Source: Escherichia coli (GTDB taxonomy: Bacteria; Pseudomonadota; Gammaproteobacteria; Enterobacterales; Enterobacteriaceae). Taken from it: a stretch of 64,000 nt of DNA. Below are positions 2,118 to 34,120 of the stretch, in pieces; position 1 is the stretch's first letter; each line of letters begins with the position of its first letter. The position numbers were made by a program, and so were the translations under genes. The stretch lies in the NCBI RefSeq assembly GCF_048403405.1, contig NZ_CP183129.1; one strand, 5' to 3'. Below the pieces are notes generated by a model. The model did not search any database, was not told the origin of the DNA, and saw only the letters and a list, made by a program, of their open reading frames with translations.

Positions 2118-3292
2118 GCGTAATCATCGTCGGTGGCGGCATGGCGGGCGCGACGCTGGCGCTGGCTATTTCCCGGTTAAGTCACGGGGCGCTGCCGGTA
2201 CATTTGATTGAAGCGACTGCGCCAGAGTCACATGCTCATCCGGGCTTTGATGGACGAGCTATTGCGCTGGCGGCGGGTACCTGTCAGCAACTGGCGCGCA
2301 TCGGCGTTTGGCAATCTCTGGCGGATTGCGCAACCGCCATCACCAGCGTGCATGTCAGCGATCGTGGTCACGCTGGATTTGTCACCCTCGCCGCAGAAGA
2401 TTACCAACTGGCGGCGCTGGGACAGGTTGTCGAATTGCACAATGTCGGGCAACGGCTGTTTGCATTGCTGCGTAAAGCACCTGGCGTAACGCTGCATTGC
2501 CCTGATCGCGTGGCTAACGTTGCCCGTACTCAGAGTCACGTTGAAGTGACGCTGGAGTGTGGCGAAACGCTGACGGGCCGCGTGCTGGTAGCCGCTGATG
2601 GCACCCATTCAGCGTTAGCCACTGTGTGCGGCGTTGACTGGCAGCAGGAGCCTTACGAACAACTGGCTGTGATTGCCAACGTTGCGACTTCCGTTGCGCA
2701 CGAAGGGCGCGCTTTTGAACGCTTTACGCAACATGGCCCGCTGGCGATGTTGCCGATGTCTGACGGACGCTGTTCGCTGGTCTGGTGTCATCTACTGGAA
2801 CGGCGCGAAGAGGTACTGTCGTGGAGCGACGAGAAGTTTTGCCGTGAACTCCAGTCGGCCTTTGGTTGGCGACTTGGGAAAATTACCCACGCTGGTAAAC
2901 GCAGTGCTTATCCGCTGGCGTTAACCCGCGCCGCCAGACCTATTACCCATCGTACCGTGCTGGTGGGCAATGCGGCGCAAACTCTGCACCCGATTGCCGG
3001 GCAAGGGTTCAACCTCGGTATGCGGGATGTCATGAGCCTTGCGGAAACCTTGACTCAGGCGCAGGAGCGCGGAGAAGACATAGGTGATTACGGCGTATTG
3101 TGCCGTTATCAGCAGCGTCGACAGAGCGATCGCGAAGCAACCATCGGTGTCACGGACAGCCTTGTACATCTTTTTGCCAACCGTTGGACGCCGCTGGTTG
3201 TCGGGCGCAACATCGGGCTGATGACGATGGAATTATTTACCCCGGCACGCGATGTGCTGGCGCAGCGCACCCTCGGTTGGGTGGCGCGTTGA
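2114..3292 (+). CDS. ubiH: 2-octaprenyl-6-methoxyphenol hydroxylase (FAD-dependent monooxygenase)
   Basis: 392 aa with an N-terminal GGGMAGATLA FAD-binding fold; the ATG overlaps the pepP stop (ATGA), indicating translational coupling. Confidence 0.93.
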   Translation: MSVIIVGGGMAGATLALAISRLSHGALPVHLIEATAPESHAHPGFDGRAIALAAGTCQQLARIGVWQSLADCATAITSVHVSDRGHAGFVTLAAEDYQLAALGQVVELHNVGQRLFALLRKAPGVTLHCPDRVANVARTQSHVEVTLECGETLTGRVLVAADGTHSALATVCGVDWQQEPYEQLAVIANVATSVAHEGRAFERFTQHGPLAMLPMSDGRCSLVWCHLLERREEVLSWSDEKFCRELQSAFGWRLGKITHAGKRSAYPLALTRAARPITHRTVLVGNAAQTLHPIAGQGFNLGMRDVMSLAETLTQAQERGEDIGDYGVLCRYQQRRQSDREATIGVTDSLVHLFANRWTPLVVGRNIGLMTMELFTPARDVLAQRTLGWVAR

Positions 3293-3314
3293 AGGCGGTT
3301 TTAAGGAATAAACA

Positions 3315-4517
3315 ATGCAAAGTGTTGATGTAGCCATTGTTGGCGGCGGCATGGTGGGGCTGGCGGTTGCCTGCGGCTTACAGGGGAGCGGCTTACGCGT
3401 TGCCGTACTGGAGCAGCGCGTACCGGAACCTCTGGCGGCGAATGCACCACCACAACTGCGCGTTTCGGCTATCAATGCCGCCAGCGAAAAATTACTCACC
3501 CGTCTTGGCGTCTGGCAGGACATTCTCTCTCGTAGGGCCAGTTGTTATCACGGTATGGAAGTGTGGGACAAAGACAGCTTTGGTCACATTTCGTTTGACG
3601 ATCAAAGCATGGGCTATAGCCATCTTGGGCATATCGTTGAAAACTCAGTGATTCACTACGCGCTGTGGAACAAAGCGCAGCAGTCGTCAGATATCACTCT
3701 GTTGGCCCCCGCAGAATTACAGCAGGTCGCCTGGGGAGAAAATGAAACCTTCCTGACGCTGAAAGATGGCAGCATGTTAACGGCGCGTCTGGTGATTGGC
3801 GCGGACGGCGCTAATTCCTGGTTGCGCAACAAAGCCGATATTCCGCTGACTTTCTGGGATTATCAGCATCACGCGCTGGTAGCGACCATTAGCACGGAAG
3901 AACCGCATGATGCGGTGGCGCGGCAGGTTTTCCATGGCGAAGGCATTCTGGCCTTTTTACCGCTTAGCGATCCGCATCTTTGCTCGATTGTCTGGTCACT
4001 GTCGCCAGAGGAAGCGCAGCGGATGCAGCAGGCAAGTGAAGACGAATTTAATCGCGCGTTAAATATCGCTTTTGATAATCGCCTTGGCTTATGCAAGGTT
4101 GAGAGTGCGCGTCAGGTGTTCCCACTGACGGGGCGTTATGCGCGCCAATTTGCCGCGCACCGTCTGGCGTTGGTGGGCGACGCCGCGCATACCATTCACC
4201 CGCTGGCGGGGCAGGGCGTTAATCTCGGCTTTATGGATGCTGCAGAGCTGGTTGCTGAACTGAAACGGTTGCATCGTCAGGGGAAAGACATCGGGCAGTA
4301 CATTTATCTGCGTCGCTATGAGCGTAGCCGCAAGCACAGTGCGGCGCTGATGCTGGCTGGTATGCAGGGATTCCGCGATCTGTTTTCCGGTACCAATCCG
4401 GCGAAAAAACTGCTGCGTGATATTGGTTTGAAACTGGCCGACACGCTTCCTGGCGTTAAACCACAACTTATCCGCCAGGCAATGGGATTAAACGATTTGC
4501 CTGAATGGCTGCGTTAA
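3315..4517 (+). CDS. ubiI: 2-octaprenylphenol hydroxylase (FAD-dependent monooxygenase, VisC)
   Basis: 400 aa with a GGGMVGLAVA dinucleotide-binding motif; paralogous to and immediately downstream of ubiH. Confidence 0.92.
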   Translation: MQSVDVAIVGGGMVGLAVACGLQGSGLRVAVLEQRVPEPLAANAPPQLRVSAINAASEKLLTRLGVWQDILSRRASCYHGMEVWDKDSFGHISFDDQSMGYSHLGHIVENSVIHYALWNKAQQSSDITLLAPAELQQVAWGENETFLTLKDGSMLTARLVIGADGANSWLRNKADIPLTFWDYQHHALVATISTEEPHDAVARQVFHGEGILAFLPLSDPHLCSIVWSLSPEEAQRMQQASEDEFNRALNIAFDNRLGLCKVESARQVFPLTGRYARQFAAHRLALVGDAAHTIHPLAGQGVNLGFMDAAELVAELKRLHRQGKDIGQYIYLRRYERSRKHSAALMLAGMQGFRDLFSGTNPAKKLLRDIGLKLADTLPGVKPQLIRQAMGLNDLPEWLR

Positions 4518-4964
4518 AAATTTCTCTTCTGCTGTTTATTTGATACCCATCACACTTTCATCTCCCGGTTTTTTCGCCGGGAGATTTTCCTCATTTGAAA
4601 TAAACTAATTTCACCTCCGTTTTCGCATTATATTTTCTAATGTCATGATTTTTTGATTTAGTGTTTTTTGACAATTTTTTAGTTCTTAATATTGCATTAA
4701 TCAAATTAACTTTCTCATCTGTTTATCTTTATATAGAGATTTGTTCATTTTTTGGTTTTTTATTCTGTTGTGATTTTGGCGTTTTTTAACCATAAGCTAA
4801 TGTGATGATCAATTTTACCTTATGGTTAACAGTCTGTTTCGGTGGTAAGTTCAGGCAAAAGAGAACGATTGCGTTGGGGACCGGGAGTGGCTCCGATGCT
4901 GGGTTTCGTGGTGATAATTTCGCCATGGAAAAGTTGTCAGCCCCGCTTATTCAATGAGGACAAG
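4518..4964 (+). promoter_or_regulatory. gcvT upstream control region (gcvTHP promoter; site of known GcvA/Lrp/PurR/CRP control in E. coli)
   Basis: A ~450 bp AT-rich non-coding stretch containing a TTGACA hexamer lies directly upstream of gcvT. The regulator sites are from established knowledge and were not individually mapped here. Confidence 0.5.
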
Positions 4965-6059
4965 ATGGCACAACAGACTCCTTTGTACGAACAACACACG
5001 CTTTGCGGCGCTCGCATGGTGGATTTCCACGGCTGGATGATGCCGCTGCATTACGGTTCGCAAATCGACGAACATCATGCGGTACGTACCGATGCCGGAA
5101 TGTTTGATGTGTCACATATGACCATCGTCGATCTTCGCGGCAGCCGCACCCGGGAGTTTTTGCGTTATCTGCTGGCGAACGATGTGGCGAAACTCACCAA
5201 AAGCGGCAAAGCCCTTTACTCGGGGATGTTGAATGCCTCTGGCGGTGTGATAGATGACCTCATCGTCTACTACTTTACTGAAGATTTCTTCCGCCTCGTT
5301 GTTAACTCCGCCACCCGCGAAAAAGACCTCTCCTGGATTACCCAACACGCTGAACCTTTCGGCATCGAAATTACCGTTCGTGATGACCTTTCCATGATCG
5401 CCGTGCAAGGGCCGAATGCGCAGGCAAAAGCTGCCACACTGTTTAATGACGCTCAGCGTCATGCGGTGGAAGGGATGAAACCGTTCTTTGGCGTGCAGGC
5501 GGGCGATCTGTTTATTGCCACCACCGGTTACACCGGTGAAGCGGGCTACGAAATTGCGCTGCCCAATGAAAAAGCGGCCGATTTCTGGCGCGCGCTGGTG
5601 GAAGCGGGCGTTAAGCCATGCGGTCTGGGCGCGCGTGACACGCTGCGTCTGGAAGCGGGCATGAATCTTTATGGTCAGGAGATGGACGAAACCATCTCTC
5701 CGTTAGCCGCCAACATGGGCTGGACTATCGCCTGGGAACCAGCAGATCGTGACTTCATCGGTCGTGAAGCCCTGGAAGTGCAGCGTGAACATGGCACAGA
5801 AAAACTGGTTGGTCTGGTGATGACTGAAAAAGGCGTGCTGCGTAATGAACTGCCGGTACGTTTTACTGATGCGCAGGGCAACCAGCATGAAGGCATTATC
5901 ACCAGCGGTACTTTCTCCCCGACGCTGGGTTACAGCATTGCGCTGGCGCGTGTGCCGGAAGGTATTGGTGAAACGGCGATTGTGCAAATTCGCAACCGTG
6001 AAATGCCGGTTAAAGTGACGAAACCTGTTTTTGTGCGTAACGGTAAAGCCGTCGCGTGA
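4965..6059 (+). CDS. gcvT: Glycine cleavage system aminomethyltransferase (T protein)
   Basis: Track ORF 4842..6059 trimmed to the ATG at codon 42 ([24 protein letters not shown]...), giving 364 aa. Confidence 0.95.
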
Positions 6060-6082
6060 TTTACTTTTTTGGAGATTGATTG

Positions 6083-6472
6083 ATGAGCAACGTACCAGCA
6101 GAACTGAAATACAGCAAAGAACACGAATGGCTGCGTAAAGAAGCCGACGGCACTTACACCGTTGGTATCACCGAACATGCCCAGGAGCTGTTAGGCGATA
6201 TGGTGTTTGTTGACCTGCCGGAAGTGGGCGCAACGGTTAGCGCGGGCGATGACTGCGCGGTTGCCGAATCGGTAAAAGCGGCGTCAGACATTTATGCGCC
6301 AGTAAGCGGTGAAATCGTGGCGGTAAACGACGCACTGAGCGATTCCCCGGAACTGGTGAACAGCGAACCGTATGCAGGCGGCTGGATCTTTAAAATCAAA
6401 GCCAGCGATGAAAGCGAACTGGAATCACTGCTGGATGCGACCGCATACGAAGCATTGTTAGAAGACGAGTAA
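6083..6472 (+). CDS. gcvH: Glycine cleavage system H protein (lipoyl carrier)
   Basis: 129 aa, [20 protein letters not shown]...; the track ORF begins one codon earlier at a TTG, the ATG is preferred. Confidence 0.95.
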
Positions 6473-6590
6473 CGGCTTTATTCCTCTTCTGCGGGAGAGG
6501 ATCAGGGTGAGGAACTTTTACGCCTCACCCTCACTCTCTTCGCAAGGAGAGAGGTTCACAATTCACTGCACGTTTCAGGAACCATCGCTC

Positions 6591-9464
6591 ATGACACAGA
6601 CGTTAAGCCAGCTTGAAAACAGCGGCGCTTTTATTGAACGCCATATCGGACCGGATGCCGCGCAACAGCAAGAAATGCTGAATGCCGTTGGCGCACAATC
6701 GTTAAACGCGCTGACCGGCCAGATTGTGCCGAAAGATATTCAGCTTGCGACCCCGCCGCAGGTTGGCGCACCGGCGACCGAATACGCCGCGCTGGCGGAA
6801 CTCAAGGCTATTGCCAGTCGCAATAAACGCTTCACGTCTTACATCGGCATGGGTTACACCGCCGTGCAGCTACCGCCGGTTATCCTGCGTAACATGCTGG
6901 AAAATCCGGGCTGGTATACCGCGTATACTCCGTATCAACCTGAAGTCTCCCAGGGCCGCCTTGAAGCACTGCTCAACTTCCAGCAGGTAACGCTGGATTT
7001 GACCGGGCTGGATATGGCCTCTGCTTCTCTTCTGGACGAGGCCACCGCTGCCGCCGAAGCAATGGCGATGGCGAAACGCGTCAGCAAACTGAAAAATGCC
7101 AACCGCTTCTTTGTTGCTTCTGACGTCCATCCGCAAACGCTCGATGTGGTCCGTACTCGTGCTGAAACCTTTGGTTTTGAAGTGATTGTCGATGATGCGC
7201 AAAAAGTGCTCGACCACCAGGACGTCTTCGGCGTGCTGTTACAGCAGGTCGGCACTACTGGTGAAATTCACGACTACACCGCGCTTATTAGCGAACTGAA
7301 ATCACGCAAAATTGTGGTCAGTGTCGCCGCCGATATTATGGCGCTGGTGCTGTTAACTGCGCCGGGTAAACAGGGCGCGGATATTGTTTTTGGTTCGGCG
7401 CAACGCTTTGGCGTACCGATGGGTTACGGTGGCCCACACGCGGCATTCTTTGCGGCGAAAGACGAATACAAACGCTCAATGCCGGGCCGTATTATCGGTG
7501 TATCGAAAGATGCAGCTGGCAACACCGCTCTGCGCATGGCGATGCAGACTCGCGAGCAACATATTCGTCGTGAGAAAGCGAACTCCAACATTTGTACTTC
7601 CCAGGTGCTGCTGGCAAACATCGCCAGCCTGTATGCCGTTTATCACGGCCCGGTTGGCCTGAAACGTATCGCTAACCGCATTCACCGTCTGACCGATATC
7701 CTGGCGGCAGGCCTGCAACAAAAAGGTCTGAAGCTGCGCCATGCGCACTATTTCGACACTCTGTGTGTGGAAGTGGCCGACAAGGCGGGCGTACTGGCGC
7801 GTGCCGAAGTGGCTGAAATCAACCTGCGTAGCGATATCCTGAACGCGGTTGGGATCACCCTTGATGAAACCACCACGCGCGAAAACGTGATGCAGCTTTT
7901 CAGCGTACTGCTGGGGGATAACCACGGACTGGACATCGACACGCTGGACAAAGACGTGGCTCACGATAGCCGCTCTATTCAGCCTGCAATGTTGCGCGAC
8001 GACGAAATCCTCACCCATCCGGTGTTTAATCGCTACCACAGCGAAACCGAAATGATGCGCTATATGCACTCGCTGGAGCGTAAAGATCTGGCGCTGAATC
8101 AGGCGATGATCCCGCTGGGTTCCTGCACCATGAAACTGAACGCCGCCGCCGAGATGATCCCCATCACCTGGCCGGAATTTGCCGAACTGCACCCGTTCTG
8201 CCCGCCGGAACAGGCCGAAGGTTATCAGCAGATGATTGCGCAACTGGCTGACTGGCTGGTGAAACTGACCGGTTACGACGCCGTTTGTATGCAGCCGAAC
8301 TCTGGCGCACAGGGCGAATATGCGGGCCTGCTGGCGATTCGTCATTATCATGAAAGCCGCAACGAAGGGCATCGCGATATCTGCCTGATCCCGGCTTCTG
8401 CGCACGGAACTAACCCCGCTTCTGCACATATGGCAGGAATGCAGGTGGTAGTTGTGGCATGTGATAAAAATGGCAACATCGATCTGACTGACCTGCGCGC
8501 GAAAGCGGAACAAGCGGGCGATAATCTCTCCTGCATCATGGTGACTTATCCTTCCACCCACGGCGTGTACGAAGAAACGATCCGTGAAGTGTGTGAAGTC
8601 GTGCATCAGTTCGGCGGTCAGGTTTACCTTGATGGCGCGAACATGAACGCCCAGGTCGGCATCACCTCACCGGGCTTTATTGGCGCGGACGTCTCGCACC
8701 TTAACCTGCATAAAACTTTCTGCATTCCGCACGGTGGCGGCGGCCCAGGTATGGGACCGATCGGCGTGAAAGCGCATCTGGCACCGTTTGTGCCAGGTCA
8801 TAGCGTGGTACAAATTGAAGGCATGTTAACCCGTCAGGGCGCGGTTTCTGCGGCACCGTTCGGTAGCGCATCCATTCTGCCAATCAGCTGGATGTACATC
8901 CGCATGATGGGCGCAGAAGGGCTGAAAAAAGCAAGCCAGGTGGCAATCCTCAACGCCAACTATATTGCCAGCCGCCTGCAGGATGCCTTCCCGGTGCTGT
9001 ATACCGGTCGCGACGGTCGCGTGGCGCACGAATGTATTCTCGATATTCGCCCGCTGAAAGAAGAAACCGGCATCAGCGAACTGGATATTGCCAAGCGTCT
9101 GATCGACTACGGTTTCCACGCGCCGACGATGTCGTTCCCGGTGGCGGGTACGCTGATGGTTGAACCGACTGAATCTGAAAGCAAAGTGGAACTGGATCGC
9201 TTTATCGACGCGATGCTGGCTATCCGCGCAGAAATTGACCAGGTGAAAGCCGGTGTCTGGCCGCTGGAAGATAACCCGCTGGTGAACGCGCCACACATTC
9301 AGAGCGAACTGGTCGCCGAGTGGGCGCATCCGTACAGCCGTGAAGTTGCAGTATTCCCGGCAGGCGTGGCAGACAAATACTGGTCGACAGTGAAACGTCT
9401 GGATGATGTTTACGGCGACCGTAACCTGTTCTGCTCCTGCGTACCGATTAGCGAATACCAGTAA
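6591..9464 (+). CDS. gcvP: Glycine dehydrogenase (decarboxylating), P protein
   Basis: Track ORF 6507..9464 trimmed to the ATG at codon 29 ([22 protein letters not shown]...), giving 957 aa, a PLP-dependent enzyme. Confidence 0.95.
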
Positions 9465-9486
9465 TTTACTGATTCGACTATCTTCT

Positions 9487-9508
9487 AAAGGCGCTTCGGC
9501 GCCTTTTT
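9487..9508 (+). terminator. Rho-independent terminator after gcvP
   Basis: AAAGGCGC-TTCG-GCGCCTTT hairpin followed by a T-run immediately downstream of the gcvP stop. Confidence 0.75.
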
Positions 9509-9627
9509 AGCTTGTTAATAAAGTGCGCTTTGTGTGTCGGATGAAGCGTAAATATAAACTCCTGGAGTTCAATATATGACAGGAGCGCCAGGCCTGATGA
9601 GCGGAGCACATCAGGCACATCGGCTAA

Positions 9628-11088
<1,461 letters not shown>

Positions 11089-34070: not shown

Positions 34071-34120
34071 CTTCTTTCCTTATTTAACCCTCTTCCCTAC
34101 GGGAAGAGGGTATTTGTCAT

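Follow-up and report, generated by a model that had tools for sequence, protein, structure and literature searches.

In E. coli, gcvT, gcvH and gcvP are expressed from a single promoter, and the glycine cleavage system is believed to require more of its carrier, the H protein, than of the P protein. An operon-internal element that forms an mRNA 3′ end would be the simplest way to set the H:P ratio from one promoter. REP/BIME repeats reportedly act as intercistronic mRNA stabilisers or attenuators, malE-malF being the example connected with Newbury/Higgins and Espeli et al. REP hairpins near stop codons have also been reported to stall terminating ribosomes. Dar and Sorek showed that in E. coli the 3′ ends of Rho-terminated transcripts sit directly behind stable hairpins that lack a U-tract and block PNPase and RNase II. 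For the gcv operon, strong internal termination (about 71%) after gcvH was described in Dickeya dadantii and was said to agree with long-read studies in E. coli (Forquet et al., 2022; PMC9239193).

A further repeat family relevant to this operon is BoxC, known since the 1990s. It is the same as the PIT element (Hoyne and Maher), and Holder et al. (2015; PMC4666352) re-described it under the name TMECO (“triplex motif of E. coli”). K-12 has 23 listed TMECOs, five pairs of which are tandem-inverted, and TMECOs 10 and 11 lie directly downstream of gcvP (Holder et al., 2015). In vitro, oligonucleotides of canonical TMECO sequence fold into stable triplexes, and TM loci tend to rearrange; DMS footprinting in vivo gave no triplex protection even at a canonical copy (PMC4666352). 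BoxC/PIT elements have no demonstrated function (PMC4666352) and, as far as the summary by Holder et al. of the reporter tests of Hoyne and Maher goes, they showed neither terminator nor promoter activity.

We analysed a stretch of 64,000 nt of E. coli DNA (the window), in which positions 3132-9510 correspond to NC_000913 3052500-3046122 and are collinear with K-12 MG1655, without indels and at 97.3% identity. The locus has the following features:

4965..6059, + strand: gcvT (aminomethyltransferase), first gene of the operon, by K-12 collinearity and K-12 annotation
6083..6472, + strand: gcvH (H protein), 129 aa, 100% identical to K-12 GcvH
6473..6590, + strand: gcvH-gcvP intercistronic spacer, 118 nt, between the gcvH stop codon (ending at 6472) and the gcvP ATG (6591)
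6482..6553, no strand assigned: putative degenerate paired (tandem-inverted) BoxC/TMECO-like element, a palindrome comprising HP1, HP2 and HP3, from nhmmer profile, TMECO core and inverted repeat
6482..6501, + strand: HP1, predicted 8-bp stem UCCUCUUC/GGAGAGGA with a UGCG loop (UNCG-type) and one G.U pair
6504..6531, + strand: HP2, predicted 9-bp stem AGGGUGAGG/CCUCACCCU with a variable 10-nt loop
6534..6553, + strand: HP3, predicted 8-bp stem CUCUCUUC/GGAGAGAG with a GCAA loop (GNRA-type; GUAA in K-12) and one G.U pair
6535, + strand: position of a K-12 RNA 3′ end (NC_000913 3049097, - strand), from the Term-seq data of Adams et al. (2021; PMC7815308), converted by collinearity
6561..6590, + strand: conserved gcvP leader block ATTCACTGCACGTTTCAGGAACCATCGCTC, containing the Shine-Dalgarno sequence AGGA (6577-6580), from cross-genus spacer comparison
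6591..9464, + strand: gcvP (glycine decarboxylase, P protein), by K-12 collinearity and annotation
9487..9509, + strand: terminator at the end of the operon, of canonical intrinsic type (GGCGC-UUCG-GCGCC, then U5), from sequence and K-12 Term-seq

A preliminary description of this DNA had reported a 118-nt gap with three tandem inverted repeats and no convincing U-tract, and had proposed RNA folding and a comparison across enterobacteria as checks. The length of the gap is exact, and an inverted-repeat search recovers all three repeats, namely TCCTCT/AGAGGA (6482-6487/6496-6501), GGGTGAGG/CCTCACCC (inside 6504-6531) and CTCTCT/AGAGAG (6534-6539/6548-6553), for which RNAfold gives longer stems, of 8, 9 and 8 bp respectively. 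The fold is stable, with a minimum free energy (MFE) of -44.3 kcal/mol for the spacer. Shuffled sequences average -30.0 kcal/mol (sd 3.3), which corresponds to z = -4.39, and among 200 of them not one was as stable. HP2 (-15.7 kcal/mol) is the dominant and essentially obligatory hairpin with a pair probability of about 1.0. HP1, which begins 9 nt past the gcvH stop codon, reaches -12.6 kcal/mol alone and has a pair probability of about 0.44 within the full spacer. HP3 (-12.2 kcal/mol) is weaker, richer in A-U and G.U pairs and apparently not the final barrier. All three hairpins are encompassed as arms by a single larger imperfect palindrome (arms 6484-6512 and 6523-6551), and a nested long hairpin (-43.5 kcal/mol) rivals the fold with HP1 and HP3 at roughly 50:50, so that HP2 alone is certain. 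The - strand folds worse than the + strand (-40.5 kcal/mol, z = -3.43), partly because the G.U pairs of HP1 and HP3 become A.C mismatches there.

None of the hairpins is followed by a U-tract, and a terminator scan finds no + strand site at 6000-7000. The tail after HP2, CACUCUCU, has three U in 8 nt, and the combination of a GC-rich hairpin with an immediate U-tract that marks an intrinsic terminator is not found in the spacer. A consensus scan for an internal promoter in the spacer was likewise negative.

With respect to the repeat family, the preliminary description had considered a degenerate REP-like element. The idea of a repeat is right in spirit, but the family is a different one. The REP pattern (GCCKGATG ... 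CATCMGGC) does not occur in the spacer with up to three mismatches, nor on direct reading, and the annotation of NC_000913 has no repeat_region, and hence no REP, in this spacer; REP identity was rejected. The spacer shares with REP/BIME an intercistronic palindromic repeat that lacks a U-tract, a stable 3′ end of the upstream mRNA and, probably, differential operon expression, but it belongs to a different sequence family.

The resemblance is instead to BoxC. In an nhmmer search, a profile derived from four K-12 pairs of canonical BoxC, none of them from this spacer, matches 6487-6553 with E = 1.9e-5; this is the top match in the window and covers profile positions 11-98 of 102. The TMECO purine core GGGAGAGGGNNNGGGTGAGGG (R1-N3-R2) is found at 6493-6513 with two mismatches, as the sole match in 64 kb where 0.01 would be expected by chance. 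The architecture is that of the tandem-inverted K-12 pairs (hrpB-mrcB, fepB-entC, ygfF-gcvP, alx-sstT), in which a pyrimidine block, loop and purine block are followed by a linker, GGGTGAGG ... CCTCACCC, a second linker and again pyrimidine block, loop and purine block. The layout Y-R / R...Y / Y-R of hrpB-mrcB and the other K-12 pairs is thus also that of the gcvH-gcvP spacer, where the half-elements face each other across a variable centre and either three hairpins or one long hairpin can form. As in canonical BoxC, the element is intergenic and has conserved stems and varying loops. In contrast to canonical BoxC, it lies between co-transcribed genes of an operon, is single-copy by BLAST and fails the strict TMECO consensus of Holder et al. 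(2015; PMC4666352), CCCTCNCCC-N3-6-GGGNGAGGG-N3-GGGNGAGGG, which has no exact match in the window. Furthermore, its MFE fold consists of three local hairpins, whereas canonical copies fold into the nested long hairpin. The gcvH-gcvP copy is also absent from the published list of 23 K-12 TMECOs.

Used as a blastn query, the E. coli spacer finds only its own locus, one place in each genome; of 5426 complete E. coli genomes 5425 carry it, with at least 95% identity in all but three. At this position, Enterobacter cloacae, E. asburiae, a Pseudocitrobacter MAG, Buttiauxella and others have a cleaner triple hairpin of the form CCCTCTCCC-loop-GGGAGAGGG, GGGGTGAGGG...CCCTCACCC, CCCTCTCCC-loop-GGGAGAGGG. 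When the Enterobacter element serves as query, the number of matches in an E. coli genome has a median of 12; all lie in unannotated intergenic DNA, and K-12 hrpB-mrcB is one of them. Because the Enterobacter element finds many such places, descent from the BoxC family is likely, the E. coli copy having diverged beyond recognition by BLAST. A divergent Escherichia lineage (L004) keeps the type-A linkers TTA and TAA. Judged by the profile, the core and these linkers, and given that the strict consensus has no match, the gcvH-gcvP element is best read as a diverged single-locus BoxC pair in the inverted form, REP-like in kind and not a REP. It would thus be a new copy, in degenerate form, of a repeat already described, at a site that holds an operon-internal terminator in a relative.

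Downstream of fabI (envM) there is only a plain terminator; the BoxC copy at this gene sits upstream, as TMECO 9 in the table of Holder et al.

An indication of function comes from RNA 3′ ends. The MG1655 Term-seq data of Adams et al. (2021, eLife; PMC7815308; Supplementary file 1) include an “orphan” end at 3049097 (-). Each row of this table gives 50 nt upstream, the end nucleotide and 10 nt downstream, and the flank of 3049097 is the gcvH-gcvP spacer sequence. The RNA ends in ...CCUCACCCUCACU-3′, 4 nt past the stem of HP2 and at the base of HP3, i.e., it has a steady-state 3′ end just after a stable U-less stem-loop. Two of its three matches in the file, which has a separate tab for each growth condition, score 412219 and 171112, compared to 36065 for the gcvP terminator, a difference of about 11-fold on a Term-seq scale that is not calibrated for transcript ratios. 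The primary 3′ end at the gcvP terminator (3046123, window 9509) lies at the end of the U-tract, 6 nt past the stem. A published but unexplained “orphan” peak is hence tied to a specific structure.

Similar ends are found at canonical copies. Three K-12 BoxC loci have a Term-seq end about 4 nt past the hairpin, namely lldD-trmL (3781065, +), which is flagged Rho-dependent, ppiC-ilvC (3959467, -) and hrpB-mrcB (164636, +). By our own rough estimate from 3110 ends genome-wide, about 0.14 such coincidences would be expected by chance; the other canonical K-12 BoxC loci looked up in the Term-seq table (about 11 of 14) have no 3′ end there. In the literature that we searched, no published statement links BoxC to RNA 3′ ends, and the SMRT-Cappable-seq paper and its supplement contain nothing on gcv. 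BoxC, which has been studied as DNA triplexes and was left with no clear role, is thereby linked to reproducible RNA 3′ ends at four loci.

The gcvH-gcvP element also resembles the 3′-terminal stem-loops of Rho-dependent or processed transcripts, which are stable and U-less, with the 3′ end right after them and C-rich, G-poor sequence next. It differs from these in lying between two operon genes and not at a transcript end. An end 4 nt past the stem, a hairpin with no U-tract, the C-rich and G-poor downstream arm and the Rho flag at lldD would all fit the picture of Dar and Sorek.

Further Term-seq ends in the operon, from the same table, lie at K-12 3050723 (-; window 4909, in the gcvT 5′ UTR), 3050602 (-; 5030, 66 nt into gcvT) and 3048758 (-; 6874, 283 nt into gcvP), the last being scored as not Rho-dependent. 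These ends suggest that transcripts of the operon are terminated prematurely or processed at other places as well. As the source of the end after HP2, cleavage of the nested long hairpin by RNase III is unlikely; it predicts a second end at about 6500 (K-12 about 3049132), which is not listed in the Term-seq table.

We compared the same spacer across species-representative genomes, taking the best 80 loci, a set in which Salmonella and Klebsiella are not represented. Five of these spacers measure 8-23 nt and have no hairpin; nearly all the rest have a strong hairpin right after gcvH, of the following types:

GC hairpin and T-run (intrinsic terminator): Photorhabdus, Providencia, Serratia, Dickeya, Pectobacterium, Yersinia, Pantoea, Shewanella and relatives
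REP-type palindromes: Citrobacter, Lelliottia, Kosakonia, Trabulsiella and some Enterobacter
ERIC elements: Citrobacter koseri, Kluyvera and others
BoxC: Escherichia, several Enterobacter, Buttiauxella and Pluralibacter
Single BoxC-like hairpin (by eye): Siccibacter, Cedecea and Phytobacter
No hairpin, spacer of 8-23 nt: Erwinia and Rosenbergiella

The hairpin therefore appears dispensable in some lineages, as Erwinia and Rosenbergiella show. Immediately after gcvH, where the E. coli element lies, Dickeya dadantii has its terminator (Forquet et al., 2022; PMC9239193), and Photorhabdus, Serratia, Yersinia and Pantoea have sequence counterparts of it. The outcome would also be the same, that is, a gcvTH transcript together with a read-through gcvTHP transcript. 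The means differ, as the Dickeya-type terminators consist of a GC hairpin and a T-run whereas the E. coli element has no U-tract and is unrelated in sequence.

Taken together, it is moderately probable that the eroded BoxC pair forms or protects the 3′ end of the gcvTH mRNA and thereby lowers the relative expression of gcvP. A BoxC copy would have become fixed in E. coli at the position that holds an operon-internal terminator in other Enterobacterales. In the gcvTHP mRNA, HP2, aided by HP1, would then define the 3′ end of an abundant gcvT-gcvH transcript. Either RNA polymerase would stop at the end of HP2 or shortly downstream, or PNPase and RNase II would trim RNA that is terminated or cleaved further downstream back to the base of HP2, where they stall. 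The 3049097 site is absent from the BCM-sensitive (Rho) regions and the Rho scores that Adams et al. list (Supplementary files 2 and 3), which goes against a simple Rho model. By either route, a minority of transcripts would carry gcvP. Since the 3′ end lies just after the middle hairpin, the element probably makes the gcvT-gcvH message exceed the gcvP message, and T and H proteins might in consequence be in excess of P protein. The suggestion of the preliminary description that the hairpins affect mRNA stability or modulate the P protein is strengthened in its first part by the strong K-12 end 4 nt past HP2 and by internal termination in Dickeya, while we infer the effect on the level of GcvP.

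A wider reading is possible, which we advance tentatively. BoxC elements in general might be RNA modules that define or protect mRNA 3′ ends, similar to REP, and the gcvH-gcvP copy might have been exapted and have replaced an ancestral intrinsic terminator. Selection would have kept the hairpins through compensatory and wobble changes while the triplex-forming sequence decayed. Terminator, REP, ERIC and BoxC would have been interchanged repeatedly at this site, holding the ratio of GcvT/H to GcvP.

The main alternative is that the spacer contains a neutral relic, i.e., a decaying BoxC insertion at which the 3′ end is incidental because exonucleases stall at any stable hairpin, and which has no meaningful effect on gcvP. 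Several observations agree with a relic: the negative reporter tests of BoxC/PIT and the lack of a demonstrated function, as summarised by Holder et al. (PMC4666352), the erosion of this copy past the strict TMECO consensus, the Enterobacterales that have no hairpin in the spacer, and the many kinds of repeat tolerated there, as at a permissive landing site. Conservation speaks against it, the element being kept in all but one of the 5426 complete E. coli genomes. The preliminary description had named unstable structures and an unconserved spacer as what would refute its reading, and this is not what is found. Among six E. coli haplotypes including K-12, which make up our whole sample for constraint within the species, differences are confined to the HP2 loop and one position of the HP3 loop, where GCAA and GUAA are both GNRA-type, and the stems are identical. 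Compared by hand with canonical BoxC, the element has a C-G to U-A double compensatory change once in HP1 and once in HP3, C-to-U changes that preserve a G.U pair in the mRNA sense only, and former loop bases taken into the HP3 stem. In nine BoxC-type spacers the consensus fold retains the three hairpins, with two-sided change in 7 of 23 pairs, a count from an imperfect alignment of copies that are perhaps non-independent. Sequence comparison is thus suggestive of constraint on the hairpin stems. Also against a relic are the functional partial terminator at the same position in Dickeya (PMC9239193) and the very strong 3′ end signal in the Term-seq data. We consider it rather unlikely that the element is a relic.

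A direct attenuator, either factor-independent or assisted by NusA/NusG, is a sub-case of the preferred explanation, in which polymerase terminates a few nucleotides past HP2 despite the weak pyrimidine tract CACUCUCUUC. In the Term-seq tables, the 3′ end is sharp and reproducible and no BCM-dependent region is listed for the site, and relatives have true intrinsic terminators here. However, a tail with only three U in its first 8 nt and the negative terminator scan are not what such a terminator would show, and the end lies 4 nt from the stem compared to 6 nt, at the end of the U-tract, for the gcvP terminator. PIT elements had no terminator activity in the reporters, as summarised by Holder et al. 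(PMC4666352), and the equivalent BoxC end at lldD is flagged Rho-dependent. Leaky intrinsic termination at HP2 is therefore unlikely as the route by which the preferred explanation operates.

It is very unlikely that the element acts at the level of DNA, where a triplex or cruciform would promote rearrangement, stall replication or bind a protein and RNA structure would be secondary. Canonical TMECO forms triplexes in vitro and TM loci are prone to rearrangement (PMC4666352), and two rearrangements bear on the matter. In E. coli VTB96775v (NZ_CP178634.1; L002, 1426-1595), the spacer measures 170 nt and carries a 52-nt insert at the equivalent of the position after window 6503, containing a second copy of HP2 and an inverted HP3 (loop CCTTACGAAG, the reverse complement of CTTCGTAAGG), with a predicted fold of -96 kcal/mol. 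On its sequence, this inverted duplication within the element looks like the product of template switching or of a palindrome-mediated event. Downstream of the gcvP terminator, K-12 has 1020 nt (3045102-3046121) with a canonical BoxC pair (TMECOs 10 and 11) and ygfF, both of which are missing from the strain of the window; at 9511-9627 the window has instead 117 nt of unrelated sequence that include a REP-like palindrome, and bglA comes directly after. The breakpoint of this difference adjoins the BoxC pair, consistent with the reported instability of BoxC loci, and both cases fit the idea of Holder et al. that the motif promotes instability. At the gcvH-gcvP spacer itself, the locus is by contrast very stable, as indicated by its single copy and high identity in nearly all E. 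coli genomes. Each half has about 5-6 mismatches per 27 specified bases in a hand alignment, the GGG/CCC triplets are eroded to GGA/GAG/CTC, and the sequence prerequisites of a purine-motif triplex (three matched 9-nt G/C-rich blocks) are degraded. The triplex potential of this copy is doubtful, because its triplets are eroded and the strict consensus has no match. Moreover, the G.U pairs favour the RNA sense strand over its complement, and triplex protection was not observed in vivo even at a canonical copy (PMC4666352).

A translational or ligand- or sRNA-responsive regulator of the gcvP ribosome-binding site (riboswitch-like, or a leader targeted by an sRNA) is highly improbable. In its favour, the hairpin arms contain Shine-Dalgarno-like and anti-Shine-Dalgarno-like motifs (GGAG, GAGG / CCUC), and conservation is strong in the 30 nt that precede the gcvP ATG. 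Against it, the best Rfam match in 4500-10000 at a permissive threshold (whalefall-1, E = 0.14) has 19.8 bits, far under the gathering score of 37, the Shine-Dalgarno sequence at 6577-6580 lies about 24 nt past HP3 and is not sequestered by the hairpins, and sister genera replace the hairpin module with unrelated repeats and retain the leader.

This exchange of the module while the leader is kept makes the two separable. The leader block (6561-6590; ATTCACTGCACGTTTCAGGAACCATCGCTC), with its weak AGGA 10 nt from the ATG, is near-invariant among Enterobacteriaceae genera, whichever of BoxC, REP or ERIC is located upstream, and its conservation exceeds what we would expect of a plain ribosome-binding site. 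The reading frame of gcvP is open upstream as far as a GTG at 6507 in the 5′ arm of HP2, corresponding to 28 extra codons, which is probably due to chance (about 26% by our own estimate). An N-terminally extended GcvP starting from this GTG finds no support, as ATG 6591 is the annotated start and also fits the cross-species alignment.

The practical importance of the element is modest and concerns the annotation of the operon and the engineering of gcvTHP in strains with the reductive glycine pathway, where the spacer would limit expression of gcvP. Elsewhere in the window, a lone perfect hairpin, TAACCCTCTTCCC-TAC-GGGAAGAGGG, is located in a short intergenic gap at 34085-34110 and matches the BoxC profile weakly (E = 0.029). 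It may be a solitary BoxC-like half element.
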